Assembly: GCA_027493875.1 (NCBI GenBank)
Contig: JAOSJX010000002.1
Location: forward strand, 229,349 to 293,348
Source of the DNA: Deltaproteobacteria bacterium
GTDB lineage: Bacteria; Lernaellota; Lernaellaia; JACKCT01
Reading direction: 5' to 3'
Length of the DNA stretch: 64,000 nt
Within the stretch, counting starts at the first letter, position 1. The number at the start of each line of letters is the position of its first letter. The translations under genes were made by a program, and so were the position numbers. Under the pieces are notes generated by a model. The model worked only from the letters and a program-made list of their open reading frames with translations. It was not told the DNA's origin and did no database searches. Positions 58,590-63,510 of this stretch are shown in pieces.

Positions 58590-59623
58590 CTAGAGTAGAA
58601 AATCAGTCAAAACCAACGCGACCATGGCTTCGGCGACGGGGACGACGCGGGGGGCGATGCAGGGGTCGTGGCGGCCTTCGACGGCGACGGCGACCGGGTT
58701 GCCCTCAAGGTCGACGGTCTGTTGTTCCTTCCCGATGGAACTCGCTGGTTTGACGGCCAGACGGGCCACGACGGGCGCGCCCGTCGAGATGCCGCCGAGC
58801 ACGCCGCCGGCGTGGTTCGTGACGAAACCCTCGGGGCGCATGGAATCGTTGCTCTCGCTGCCGCGTTTGGCCGCCGCGGCGAATCCCTCGCCGATCTCCA
58901 CGCCCTTGATCGACCCGATGCTCATGAGCGCGTAGGCGAGGCGCGCGTCAAGTTTTTCGTAAACCGGATCGCCGAGACCGGCGGGCACGCCTTCCGCGAT
59001 GACCTCGACGACGGCGCCGACGCTGTCTTTGTCCGCGCGGGCGCGCTCGATTTCCTCGGCCATCGCCACCGCCGCGTCCGGGTCCGCGCAACGCACCGGA
59101 TTTTGTTCGATCGTCTCCGGTAAAAACCTTTCCGCACGGACACCGCCCACCTGCACGACGTGACCCGTGATCCGAATGCCTTTCGGTTCAAGGATCAGCC
59201 GCGCAAGCGCACCGGCGGCGACGCGCGCCGCCGTTTCGCGGCCGCTGGAGCGCCCTCCCCCCGCGGGTCGCGAATGCCGTATTTTACGTGATAGGTGTAG
59301 TCGGCGTGGCCCGGGCGGAACACCTTGGCGATGTCCGAGTAATCCTTCGGGCGCTGGTCGGTATTGCGGATGACCATCATGACCGGCGCGCCGGTGGTTT
59401 GCCCCTCGTACACGCCACTCCAGATTTCGACGCGGTCGGCCTCCTGCCGCTGCGTGGTGAGGGCCGATTGGCCGGGGCGCCGGCGGTCGAGTTGTTCCTG
59501 GATACGCGCTTCGTCGAGGCTGATTTTCGGCGGCACGCCGTCCACAACGACGCCGATGCCCACGCCGTGGCTCTCGCCGAACGTGGTGAACCGGAAATTG
59601 CGGCCGAAGCTATTGGATGCCAA
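58590..59623 (-). CDS. aroC: Chorismate synthase (frameshifts near 59130-59260)
   Basis: [54 protein letters not shown]. Confidence 0.95.
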
Positions 59624-59739
59624 GAACGACGCTCCTTTTATCCTTTAGCCGATCATAGTCGGGCGCGGCGTGCATGGAAAGCCCGCTTGCGTCCCGCGGC
59701 GCGGTGTGATTGCTTGACGGCGAACGACTTGGAGGGCTC

Positions 59740-60354
59740 ATGGCCCGCTCCCGCAAACCCGACCGGCGCAAATCCTCGGGCGACCCGCGCGCGGATCACT
59801 ATTTCTATAAAGCCAAGGACGAGGGCTTTGCCGCGCGTTCGGTCTACAAACTGGAAGAGATCGACCGCCGCGACGGGCTCCTGCGCGCCGGGATGCGCGT
59901 TCTCGATCTCGGCTGCGCGCCGGGATCGTGGACGCAATACGCCGCGCGCCGCGTGGGGCCGACGGGCTTCGTTCTCGGCATCGACCGAACGCCGTGCGCC
60001 CTTTCCCTCCCCAACGCACGCACCGTGACCGCCGATCTGCTGGAGGAGACGCCGGGGGGCGATGAGCCGTTCGACGTCGTTTTGTCGGATATGGCGCCCG
60101 CGACGTCCGGCATTCGCGACGTGGACGAGGCGCGCAGTTTGGAACTGGTCCGCGCGGCGGCGGCCGTGGCGGCGGCGCGGCTGGCACCCGGCGGGAGTTT
60201 CGTCGCCAAGATTTTTCAGGGGCCGGACACCAAGGCTTTGGTCGAGGAACTGCGTGCGGCGTATCGGGAGTGCGCGCTGCGCCGGCCGAAGGCGACGCGG
60301 TCGGAAAGCCGCGAAATCTTTCTGGTCTGCCGGGAATTTCGCGGGCGCGGATGA
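59740..60354 (+). CDS. rlmE: 23S rRNA (uridine2552-2'-O)-methyltransferase RlmE/FtsJ
   Basis: GGAGG RBS; RSVYKLEEID, DLGCAPGSW, VLSDMAP, FVAKIFQG, KATRSESREIF. Confidence 0.92.
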   Translation: MARSRKPDRRKSSGDPRADHYFYKAKDEGFAARSVYKLEEIDRRDGLLRAGMRVLDLGCAPGSWTQYAARRVGPTGFVLGIDRTPCALSLPNARTVTADLLEETPGGDEPFDVVLSDMAPATSGIRDVDEARSLELVRAAAAVAAARLAPGGSFVAKIFQGPDTKALVEELRAAYRECALRRPKATRSESREIFLVCREFRGRG

Positions 60355-61599
60355 TTGACATTTCGCGCCGATTCGGGCGTCATGCGCCGCGCAATTATCG
60401 CCCCGCGGCCTACGATTTTCGGAGTTCGGATTGGCGTTGGACAGGGCCTTCCTGACGGACAGGCGATTTCAAAAATCCGCATTGCGCTCATGGTGCTCGC
60501 CATTTTCGTGGCCGTCGAAGCGGTGGTCCGCGTCGTCACGGCGCGCCCGAATCTCGTCACGCGCAACGTCGGAACGGACGACCAAAACCTCCAATACCTT
60601 CTCGAACAGCTTCACCGGTCCAAGCGCCTCGGGACGCCGCGGATCGTCTTCATCGGCAGTTCGGTGATGCAGGGCTATCTCAACGCGTGGGACGACCGCG
60701 CCTTTCCGTTCATGGCACAGCAGATGTTGCGCAAGAAGCTACGGTTACAAGGGCCTCAAGGTGTTTAACCTCGCCGCCGCGGGCAACAGCTTCGCGGATC
60801 ATCTGTCGATCCTGAACCGCGTCCTGAGGACGAGCCCGACCTCGTTGTTCACGCGATTCACTTCAAGCTCTTTTCAACCTACAAGTCGGAACCGATCACG
60901 CGTCCCGAGGATTCGTATTATCTCGTCGGCCATCCCGAGTTGTGGCCGCACCTCGCGCGGTTCGGGATCTCGCCGAAAAAATTCGTCGGGATTTATCTGG
61001 ATAAAAAGATCGGCGAACTCTGGAAAACCTTCGGCCACCGCGATCTGCTCACGCACCTCGCCACCGGGGCGGACCGCGTGGCGATGCAGGTGGTCCGCAA
61101 GAAATTTCAAGAGACCTTCGGCTTTCTCACGGAGGAGGAATATCTCGCGCGCCTCAAGACGCCGGAAGAGCACAATCAGGATTATCTCTGGAAGATTCTG
61201 CCCGAACCGCTGCTGAAACAGAACTACGAGATCTGCGGCAACTTCAATTTTACCGAGTCCAATCCGCAATGGCAGAACTTTGAGGATGAAGCGAAGCTCG
61301 CGAGCGACAAGGGACAGCAAGTGATGTTCTACCTGACGCCTATGAACAAGTCGCTCATCATCGAGCGCGGGTTGTTCAACTGGGATACGGTGGTGCCCGC
61401 GTATAAGGAGAACGTGTATCACGTGACCCGGCGCTACGGGCATCGGCTGAAGGACTACACGCTCGCGGTCAACGACGCCTACTTCTCCGACACCGATCAC
61501 ATCAACATGAACGGCCACGAGCAGCTCGCGCAGCGCATCGCGGTCGACGTCCACCGCCAACTCAAGGCCAAACGCGCCCGGAGCGACCGTTGGAACTGA
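60351..61599 (+). CDS. Membrane-anchored SGNH-fold acyltransferase partner (DltD/AlgJ/PatB-like), at least 3 frameshifts
   Basis: TM anchor, block I IVFIGSSV, block II FNLAAAGN, block V FSDTDH.N..GH. Confidence 0.7.
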
Positions 61600-62800
61600 T
61601 CTCTTGGGCCACGCTTTTGTTTTTCCTCGCGGCGATCCCCGCCTACTGGGCGCTGCCGAAGCGCTGGCGCGCGGGTTTCTTCTGCGTCGCGGGTTTTACG
61701 TACTACTTTATTTCGTCGCCGCAGAGCGGCGTGCTCACGCTGATCTTCCTGTGGGTTATCCTTCTCTTTCAACGCATGATCCTCGCCGCGGAAACGGACC
61801 GCGGGCGTAAAAGACTTCTGATCGTCGCGGCCGTCATCTGCGCCGGTCCGATGGTGTTCTACAAGTACCGATTCTCGATCTTCGGCGGCCTTCCCGGATT
61901 CGGCTGGGCCGTGGATCTTCCACTGACGGTGCCGGTGGGCATCAGCTATTTTACGTTCCGCGCCCTGCATTTCTTGATTGAAACGCGCCGTGGTCACATC
62001 GGCCGCACGTCCGCCATCGATTTTTTCTATTACATTACGTTCATTCCCACCGTGGTCGCCGGGCCGATCGAACGGTTCGAGCCGTTCCAGACGCAGCAAA
62101 AAGCGCAGCCCGATTTCGACCCCGACATGTTCGGCGAAGGACTGCGGCGCATCGCGATCGGCGTCGTCAAGAAACTTGTGCTGGCCGACATGTTCTTCGG
62201 CTTCATTACGTCCTTCTTAAAACCCGGCACCAATCTGACGCTGGGCACCGCGCAAATCTGGATCTGCCTGCACTGCTATTACGCGTATCTTTATATGGAC
62301 TTTTCCGGGTATTCGGATATCGCCATCGGCGTCTCGCGCTTGTTCGGTTTCCGCATCATGGAAAATTTCAACTGGCCGATCTTCGCGCACAATATCCGCG
62401 AATTCTGGCGACGGTGGCACATCTCGCTCACCGGTTGGCTGACGGAATACCTGTACTTTTCCCTCGGCGGCAGCCGCAAGGGCGAGATCCGAGCCAACAT
62501 CAACACGATGATCACCATGATGGTCATCGCGCTATGGCACGGGTCGTTGCTTCTCCAACACTATTTTATCTGGGGCCTTTATCTCGGGCTGGGCCTTGTC
62601 GTGTTCCGCCAGTGGCTGCGCGTCAAAAACGCTTCTTCCCGCAGTTCGGCGATACACCGACGAGTTGGGGACGCGTGGTCGGCATCATCATGACGATCGA
62701 ATATATGAATCTTTCGTGGCCGATCTTCCTGTTCGATACGCCGGTCGCGGCCATTATGTACATCAAGATGTTCGGCATCGGCCTGCTCATGGGAGGATGA
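61590..62800 (+). CDS. MBOAT-family O-acyltransferase (AlgI/DltB/PatA-like), frameshift near 62660
   Basis: PVGISYFTF, AGPIER, YMDFSGYSDIAIG, ENFNWP, EFWRRWHISL..WL.EYLY, ALWHG catalytic His. Confidence 0.92.
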
Positions 62801-62801
62801 C

Positions 62802-62915
62802 GTGAAAGACGGCTTGGTCAAGGAATTCGGGTGGGCGCTGTTGTTTTCGGCGATGCTGCTGCTCGTCGTGTTCTTCGGCTCGTCCGGCCCCCAATTCATC
62901 TACGCCATGTTCTAA
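62802..62915 (+). CDS. 37-aa DltX/PatC-like single-TM microprotein ending FIYAMF (not in ORF track)
   Basis: GGAGG RBS, GTG start 1 nt after MBOAT stop; MKDGLVKEFGWALLFSAMLLLVVFFGSSGPQFIYAMF*. Confidence 0.8.
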   Translation: MKDGLVKEFGWALLFSAMLLLVVFFGSSGPQFIYAMF

Positions 62916-62926
62916 GGGACCGGCGC

Positions 62927-63510
62927 ATGACCCGCGGACGACTCGAAGCGTTCAGCGACGGCGTGATCGCCATCATCATCACGATCATGGTGCTCGAGCT
63001 TCGTCCGCCGCACGGCACGACGCTCGCCGATCTGGCGCCGCTTTGGCCGCGCTTTTTTGCTATCTCCTGAGTTTCGTGTTTCTCGCGATTTATTGGAACA
63101 ACCATCACCATCTGATGCACGTCGTCCATAAGGTGAACGGTCGCGTTCTCTGGGCCAACATTCATCTTCTCTTCTGGCTGTCGCTCGTTCCTTTTACGAC
63201 CGCGTGGATGGGCGAGCACGGAGCGTCTCCGGTTCCCGTGGCGCTCTACGGCGTGGTGTTGTTGCTCGCCGCGGTGGCGTATTTTCTTCTGACGCGCGCG
63301 CTTTTATCGATTCATGCGGGCGATTCGGATCTCGCCGTCGCCCTCGGACGCGACTTCAAGGGTAAGATTTCCGTCGTCGCCTATGCGGCGGCGATCGGCG
63401 GCGCCTTCGTCTCGCGGTGGATCGCCATCGCACTTTACCTCGCCGTGGCGATTCTGTGGCTCGTGCCGGACCGGCGCATCGAGCGGACAATCGACCGGCG
63501 CCCATCGTAA
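62927..63510 (+). CDS. TMEM175 (DUF1211) family potassium channel (frameshift near 63058)
   Basis: RLEAFSDGVIAIIITIMVLEL signature, YWNNHHH, LFWLSLVPF. Confidence 0.9.

Follow-up and report, generated by a model that had tools for sequence, protein, structure and literature searches.

We analysed a window of 64,000 nucleotides (nt) (contig JAOSJX010000002.1 of assembly GCA_027493875.1, positions 229,349 to 293,348 of the forward strand) and found in it, from the sequence and its open reading frames (ORFs), a cassette of three coupled genes on the forward strand (60355-62915), which lie immediately 3' of rlmE in the order SGNH protein, MBOAT and a peptide of 37 residues (Table 1). The SGNH protein begins with a hydrophobic anchor and carries the motifs FIGSSVMQGY, NLAAAGNSFADH and FSDTDHINMNGH, the last of which is the Asp/His block. 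The MBOAT, of about 400 amino acids (aa), ends in ...KMFGIGLLMGG at its stop codon and lacks an FxYxxF tail. In the peptide, a short polar N-terminus (K2, K7) is followed by a predicted transmembrane helix at about residues 9-26 and by the tail SSGPQFIYAMF, which is putatively extracytoplasmic. The genes are tightly coupled: the TTG start of the MBOAT gene and the SGNH stop overlap by 10 nt, and the GTG of the peptide gene (62802) lies one base past the MBOAT TGA, in a different frame and with a GGAGG of its own. An earlier, sequence-only reading of the window had described an SGNH protein with GSS and DxxH motifs, a WHG MBOAT and a single-helix ORF of 37 aa with a GGAGG and the end QFIYAMF, and each of these lies where that reading had placed it.

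Table 1. Features of the cassette and its neighbours (positions are those of the window)
Feature	Position	Strand	Remarks
aroC (chorismate synthase)	58590-59623	-	two ORFs, Pfam positions 1-116 and 155-327
rlmE (FtsJ domain)	59710-60354	+	Pfam; directly upstream of the cassette
Membrane-anchored SGNH gene, putatively DltD-like	60355 (TTG) or 60382 (ATG)-61599	+	about 380 aa if intact
SGNH catalytic-type Ser	60661-60663	+	TCG, in FIGSSVMQGY (GSS)
SGNH first frame change	about 60736-60740	+	frame 1 to 2
SGNH second frame change	about 60824-60829	+	frame 2 to 1
SGNH catalytic-type Asp	61489-61491	+	in DTDH
SGNH catalytic-type His	61498-61500	+	in DTDH
MBOAT gene, whole	61590-62800	+	TTG start, stop TGA 62798-62800; Pfam MBOAT E 7.9e-28
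MBOAT first part, frame 0	61590-62629	+	carries WRRWHIS and ALWHGS
MBOAT WHG catalytic-type His	62538-62540	+	CAC
A5 homopolymer	62625-62629	+	MBOAT frame slip 0 to 2; junction of tblastn high-scoring segment pairs
MBOAT last part, frame 2	62630-62800	+	RFFPQFGDTPTSWGR...IKMFGIGLLMGG
Ribosome-binding site of the peptide gene	62792-62796	+	GGAGG, 5 nt upstream of the GTG
Microprotein gene, 37 codons	62802-62915	+	GTG start, TAA 62913-62915; MKDGLVKEFGWALLFSAMLLLVVFFGSSGPQFIYAMF
Hexapeptide F32-I-Y34-A-M-F37	62895-62912	+	Tyr34 = TAC 62901-62903; putative acyl-shuttle type
TMEM175-like gene	62927-63510	+	downstream neighbour
T6 run splitting the TMEM175-like gene	about 63054-63059	+	
cpYpsA		-	follows the TMEM175-like gene

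Judged by its orthologues, the peptide is a separate and conserved gene and not the frameshifted tail of the MBOAT. The nearest MBOAT homologues (P0002, P0003, P0005 and P0008, which are 73%, 69%, 67% and 50% identical) have 396-402 aa, and intact orthologous MBOATs from independent assemblies stop, with the end ...KMFG(I/L)VGG, at the very residue where the MBOAT of the window stops. The closest relative keeps the order rlmE, SGNH gene (381 aa) and MBOAT gene (400 aa), and a peptide ORF of 36 codons with an ATG start (MTNFPREFGLALLATGLLLLVLFFGSSGPQFIYAMF) follows 176 nt past its MBOAT stop; this ORF is uncalled in the gene list of the relative's NCBI contig. An intact orthologous trio lies on contig JAIOHV010000010.1 of GCA_019912885.1 (SGNH gene L027:3078-4223, MBOAT gene L027:4226-5428, and a peptide of 36 aa). 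The sequence-only reading had itself feared the alternative that the 37 codons are the C-terminus of a fused AlgI- or PatA-type MBOAT, severed by a sequencing frameshift at about 62798-62802. Such a severed tail would agree with the many frameshifts of this assembly (two in the SGNH gene and one in the MBOAT gene, with aroC and the TMEM175-like gene both split), with the single base and the change of frame that separate the peptide ORF from the MBOAT stop, with the presence of the same motif on additional helices of fused MBOATs (PMC12148441), and with a fused paralogue of 493 aa in this genome, which ends in ...APFVYEKF. Against it stand not only the shared end residue of the intact orthologues, but also the variable spacing of the two genes, which ranges from an overlap with the MBOAT end (locus L009) to 176 nt, each peptide ORF having its own start codon. 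Several gene callers, moreover, already annotate the peptide as a separate 37-aa protein, and the extension of the fused paralogue measures about 85 residues, compared with the 37 residues of the peptide. The comparison of orthologues thus refutes the fused-tail reading for practical purposes, and we regard it as hardly credible.

The peptide ORF was present in 12 of 12 loci of family- and class-level relatives, and also in further Lernaellota-type contigs of metagenome-assembled genomes (MAGs) that were recovered via the SGNH protein; the search for relatives with a narrow SGNH alignment gave 11 loci, all from the same lineage. When 15 peptides from several phyla were aligned, F32, Y34 and F37 were the sole invariant residues. 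Pairwise ratios of nonsynonymous to synonymous substitution rates (dN/dS) within the peptide family are about 0.2-0.3, at dS values above 1, where synonymous sites are saturated. The whole genome contains 86,208 stop-to-stop segments of 30 aa or more; only 8 of them terminate in F.Y..F, and at least three of these eight are linked to an MBOAT. Because such ends are rare genome-wide and the ORF is conserved beside orthologous MBOATs, a chance origin of the peptide ORF is excluded. A database search whose query alignment was led by a 53-aa orthologue yielded 36 homologues of the peptide, all of them called 'hypothetical protein' where they are named at all, and no Pfam family. One of these homologues comes from Candidatus Lernaella stagnicola (Candidatus Lernaellota), the phylum in which the host, described as deltaproteobacterium-like in the sequence-only reading, is most likely to be placed (FEN-1099).

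We surveyed the architecture of the 120 best MBOAT homologues, counting those of up to 450 aa as short. A terminal FxYxxF was found in 0 of 45 short MBOATs, compared with 72 of 75 long ones, which bear FIYFQF-like hexapeptides; the lack of such a tail in the MBOAT of the window, noted from its sequence at the outset, is borne out by these counts and by the intact orthologues. In a tree of 116 homologues, the label split or fused changes 2 times, compared with 35 changes for shuffled labels, and 0 of 500 shuffles were as low. An adjacent one-helix ORF ending in FxYxxF accompanied the short MBOAT in all 20 loci that were inspected, namely the 12 relatives, seven distant short MBOATs and one paralogue within the genome (C28). 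The peptides of the distant loci end in ...PQFVYVMF (source given as bacterium), ...SQFIYTDF (an uncalled ORF of a Bacillaceae MAG), ...VFRYAGF (Magnetococcales), ...PFIYVAF (Opitutaceae), ...SKFVYIDF (Planctomycetota), and ...SQFIYTDF and ...TKFIYVDF (two Logan contigs). It appears from this survey that no bacterial MBOAT of the group does without the motif, which is either part of the MBOAT itself or carried by a free microprotein encoded next to it.

Further carriers of the motif occur elsewhere in the genome. The split paralogue lies at C28:292329-293680 (+), where a frameshifted MBOAT gene is followed by an ORF of 37 aa (MKPSLALDVLAGLLLFLLIAAALLMGGNVPQFVYVMF, ...PQFVYVMF), whose product is strongly similar to the peptides of loci L021 and L040. 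The fused MBOAT paralogue occupies C4:74105-75586 (-) as an open frame of 493 aa with the end ...SSALAPFVYEKF (...APFVYEKF), and it reaches about 85 residues past the point at which the split MBOATs end; this one genome therefore holds systems of both types. At C23:608437-609054 (+) and downstream of it, an MBOAT paralogue is followed by an open frame with MSRWREAAKDLGHAAFWYVLILLLILFSAGGAAEYVYMRF, in which a Tyr takes position one of the motif (YVYMRF). Two more one-helix ORFs end with the motif, one at C9:101096-101455 (+) (...VSVKGAQFIYAMF), whose last seven residues are those of the window peptide, and one at C22:262793-263125 (+) (...ASAGDLSFLYEAF); neither has an MBOAT match in the same contig region. 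Among the relatives, one genus (L028:10001-11353, L006/L005; P0004, P0006, P0007) carries a hydrophobic insertion of about 50 residues in the MBOAT, located between GGNR and the WHG helix, so that the protein has 450 instead of 400 aa. These relatives still keep the 37-aa peptide gene downstream.

The copy of the cassette in the window is interrupted by frame changes. The SGNH gene has two of them, from frame 1 to 2 and back to 1, and the MBOAT gene has a single one, at which the tblastn segment pairs of an intact orthologue join (62624-62627). The neighbouring aroC and TMEM175-like genes are split as well, and the cassette and these two genes together hold at least six frame breaks within about 5 kb. 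With three breaks in the 2.4 kb of its SGNH and MBOAT genes, the cassette could be a decaying pseudogene cluster in this genome, with genuine frameshifts and no product. However, the chorismate synthase gene, which is normally indispensable, is broken in the same way, and so is the TMEM175-like gene. Two of the breaks fall at homopolymers (the A5 run in the MBOAT gene and the T6 run in the TMEM175-like gene), and outside the indels the cassette is free of stops and 56-72% identical to its orthologues (tblastn). The completeness score of 78% despite only 28 contigs (5.2 Mb) is, furthermore, typical of indel-rich long-read bins. Since the neighbouring genes are broken too, the frame breaks in the SGNH and MBOAT genes are most likely assembly indels and not signs of decay, the slip at the A5 run being probably a one-base assembly deletion, and we consider a pseudogene cluster very unlikely. 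On this judgement the cassette is taken as functional. As the assembly appears indel-rich, pseudogene calls in this genome require read support.

The MBOAT belongs to the superfamily PF03062 (98.1 bits, cut-off 27). The only solved relatives that its orthologue has by sequence are DltB proteins (6bug, 8jem; E 3.6e-34, residues 13-380), and its WHG aligns on that of DltB, with the catalytic-type His conserved. For the TIGR04091 DltB equivalog, the MBOAT fragment of the window scores 186.7 bits and an intact orthologue 195.5 bits, both below the cut-off of 375. The protein and its orthologues also differ from the fused AlgI/PatA type, as they end in ...KMFG(I/L)xGG at about 400 aa. By these comparisons the MBOAT is DltB-like in its length and its ends, and not a DltB orthologue.

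In the SGNH proteins, G73, S75, D351 and H354 are invariant across the orthologue alignment, and the orthologue is annotated at NCBI as 'SGNH/GDSL hydrolase family protein'. No Pfam family matched the SGNH protein above threshold (best Lipase_GDSL_2, E 8e-4), and Pfam DltD is unmatched by sequence in this lineage, with a weak match for the Bacillaceae homologue only. Against PDB sequences, the SGNH profile gave weak generic GDSL matches only (best E 4e-4), with no DltD among them; PatB and AlgX appeared as very weak matches (E 0.06-0.14). The likeness to DltD needed a fold search, because the sequence profile had missed it. An AlphaFold2 model of the orthologue P0121 (predicted local distance difference test, pLDDT, 88.8; predicted template-modelling score, pTM, 0.87) has a transmembrane helix (residues 11-37) and, behind it, an alpha/beta domain. 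In a Foldseek search of this model against the PDB, ranks 1-12 are all DltD, from four species (E 3e-7 to 2e-5), with near full-length alignments of about 380-400 columns, and generic SGNH esterases rank 13 onward. The modelled DltD fold, together with the Ser in block I, the Asp-x-x-His in block V and the membrane anchor, places the protein in the class of DltD-like SGNH transferases.

The peptide shares the architecture of DltX, being a single-helix microprotein with a C-terminal FxYxxF (motif as defined in PMC12148441) that is encoded next to an SGNH protein and an MBOAT lacking such a tail. A Pfam 'Salyut' match (E 0.083, and 0.017 for an orthologue, the two ends of the range) refers to a plant-virus replicase domain and was rejected as a chance hydrophobic match. 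The DUF5989 family (PF19451) comprises one-helix microproteins of 45-50 aa with a similar terminal motif, but the window peptide does not match it and stands outside this family. A true DUF5989 microprotein (57.8 bits, E 1e-15) is encoded elsewhere in the genome, at C12:228178-228711 (+), and ends in ...EGSAVLPFIYGGF (...LPFIYGGF). No MBOAT was detected near it by tblastn, which suggests a partner other than an MBOAT for the Tyr motif there.

In the Dlt pathway, DltB acylates the Tyr of FxYxxF in the microprotein DltX, and the acyl group is then handed to DltD (Schultz, Snow & Walker 2023, cited through the summary in PMC12148441). The cassette resembles the Dlt core of Bacillota in its short MBOAT of about 400 aa without a C-terminal motif, in its separate one-helix microprotein with F-x-Y-x-x-F at the extreme C-terminus, in its SGNH protein, which is anchored in the membrane, measures about 380-390 aa and combines a Ser/Asp/His triad with a predicted DltD fold (3bma, 6o93, 7dxm, 6pfx), and in the side-by-side position of all three genes. 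The DltB-like, DltD-like and DltX-like trio could thus be the membrane half of an ordinary D-alanylation system with dltA and dltC elsewhere in the genome, and DltB is indeed the best NCBIfam match of the MBOAT. This possibility is highly improbable in view of the searches for the other half. The DltC model (TIGR01688) matched nothing in this genome, and no match exceeded the cut-off among 16 relatives that bear the cassette, of which 14 are of high quality (at least 90% complete), whereas the positive controls, B. subtilis and L. lactis, were both matched. The best match to DltA (TIGR01734) in this genome reached 45 bits against a cut-off of 560 and came from generic adenylating enzymes. The cassette proteins themselves also depart from Dlt: the MBOAT reaches half the score demanded by the DltB equivalog and does not surpass fused AlgI-type MBOATs, the peptide is unmatched by Pfam DltX, and the order SGNH-MBOAT-peptide contrasts with the order X-A-B-C-D of Dlt.

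The surroundings of the cassette agree with this. No ligase, carrier-protein or polysaccharide gene adjoins it, its neighbours being rlmE, aroC, the TMEM175-like gene and cpYpsA; the sequence-only reading had rightly pointed out that no dltA, dltC or polysaccharide genes are nearby. In the relatives, the genes that flank the cassette vary; rlmE alone is repeatedly found beside it, and genes for a ligase or a carrier are absent. As far as these homology searches reach, the cassette is not part of the Dlt pathway (dltXABCD). The host, moreover, most likely belongs to an uncultured diderm-type phylum, Lernaellota, from which no teichoic acids are known, and the acyl group and the acceptor must therefore differ from those of Dlt. 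A distant split cassette in a Magnetococcales MAG (L024:2224-6203, GCA_015234045.1) consists of genes for an AMP-binding enzyme (490 aa), an SGNH-like protein (374 aa), a 47-aa peptide (...VFRYAGF) and an MBOAT, in this order. No carrier-protein gene is called in that cassette, and it may represent a ligase-fed variant.

PatA/PatB, which in Gram-negatives O-acetylates peptidoglycan, and the systems AlgI/AlgJ/AlgX and WssH/WssI likewise combine an MBOAT with an SGNH transferase that acts on an extracytoplasmic polymer. They use an acyl-CoA (acyl-coenzyme A) donor without a carrier, which is the likeliest arrangement for the cassette, too, and they form an acyl-Tyr on the same hexapeptide; in PatA, an MBOAT with the motif in its own chain, the acetyl-Tyr has been demonstrated (PMC12148441). 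In contrast to the free peptide of the cassette, these systems carry the motif on two extra helices of the MBOAT itself, giving proteins of about 460-500 aa, and PatB and AlgJ/AlgX are not DltD-like, unlike the SGNH protein of the cassette. A microprotein 'PatC' of peptidoglycan O-acetylation, which the sequence-only reading had invoked as a parallel, found no support, as PatA carries the motif fused (PMC12148441).

We consider it likely that the three genes encode a tyrosine acyl relay across the envelope, with a core like that of DltB, DltX and DltD, outside the Dlt pathway. The analysis establishes the gene anatomy, its conservation and the family and fold relations, and it shows that the peptide gene stands apart and that orthologues of DltC and DltA are lacking; each chemical step, the topology, the donor and the acceptor are inferred as follows. 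First, the short MBOAT would take an acyl group from a cytoplasmic thioester, most likely an acyl-CoA such as acetyl-CoA because there is no dedicated ligase or carrier gene, and, at the outer face of the inner membrane, the His of its WHG motif would esterify Tyr34 of the free one-helix microprotein. Second, the flexible C-terminal FIYAMF would carry the acyl-Tyr over to the DltD-like SGNH protein at its membrane anchorage, where the Ser of GSS would receive the acyl group. Third, the SGNH protein would pass it on to a hydroxyl of a periplasmic or envelope acceptor, which could be peptidoglycan, lipopolysaccharide, or another glycan or lipid.

Alternatively, the trio could cooperate without any acyl-Tyr shuttle, the peptide serving only for structure or assembly, or the SGNH protein acting as an esterase. 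The peptide has no sequence-family link to DltX, and the SGNH fold includes many hydrolases, such as those from Foldseek rank 13 onward. Yet the only residues of the peptide that are invariant across phyla are those of F-x-Y-x-x-F at its extreme C-terminus, the motif that has been demonstrated as an acyl carrier in DltX and PatA (PMC12148441). This motif is either fused or free and never absent, which points to a catalytic rather than a structural role, and we hold a trio without a shuttle to be unlikely.

Several observations nevertheless weigh against the acyl relay. Function of the copy in the window, with its three frame breaks, assumes assembly error. Neither the window peptide nor 14 of its homologues matched Pfam DltX (PF12459, DUF3687) in hmmscan searches with E up to 10, and a profile of the peptide against the PDB retrieved no DltX chain and only spurious armadillo-repeat matches; the likeness between the peptide and DltX is confined to topology and the C-terminal hexapeptide. 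The complete split-type module that had been proposed at the outset, made up of SGNH protein, MBOAT and Tyr-microprotein with neither dltA nor dltC, holds, with a peptide outside the Pfam DltX family. The hidden Markov model of DltB gives split MBOATs the same range of scores as fused ones (148-209 bits), and it was therefore rejected as a discriminator between DltB and AlgI; by the same token, the MBOAT has no specific relation to DltB. The DltD fold matches have moderate template-modelling scores of 0.41-0.51, with high root-mean-square deviations. Finally, we can only guess at the donor and the acceptor. Short MBOATs of the DltB type are known to use a carrier protein, a housekeeping acyl carrier protein or an unrecognised carrier may provide the donor route here, and the distant split cassette of the Magnetococcales MAG does have an adjoining AMP-binding enzyme.

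We lean slightly towards a broader interpretation, in which a short MBOAT, a free Tyr-shuttle microprotein and a DltD-like SGNH protein make up a large, phylogenetically coherent and undescribed class of envelope acylation systems without DltA and DltC, which would extend over many phyla. In Lernaellota, the cassette would belong to the core of the whole lineage, retained next to rlmE, and would transfer acyl groups straight from an acyl-CoA to a conserved component of the envelope. The class was seen here in Lernaellota, Planctomycetota, Verrucomicrobiota, Magnetococcales and some Bacillota. The cassette is one member of this widespread class, which is apparently undescribed in the literature that was searched: a full-text search gave no description of free shuttle peptides outside Dlt. 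MBOAT/SGNH pathways other than Dlt are said to lack a DltX-like peptide and to carry the motif fused to the MBOAT (PMC12148441). If true, a class without DltA and DltC would contradict this published generalisation that only Dlt uses a separate shuttle peptide, and the free form of the motif would be common well outside the Gram-positive Dlt pathway.

The tyrosine acyl-shuttle mechanism itself was elucidated only in 2023-2025, and the association described here could provide an annotation rule for hundreds of genes of 35-80 aa that are uncalled or listed as 'hypothetical'. A split architecture that is uncoupled from carrier-protein donors would also make the question of which donor serves tail-less MBOATs directly testable. 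Should adjuvant antibiotics that target DltB/DltX arise, the breadth of the split architecture would bear on their spectrum. For the uncultured phylum of the host, the locus points to a modification of the envelope. In class-level relatives (L029:11452-15265), the cassette is followed by two genes for Lipase_GDSL_2-like proteins of 430 aa and by a polysaccharide deacetylase gene, which hints that the acceptor may be a glycan.

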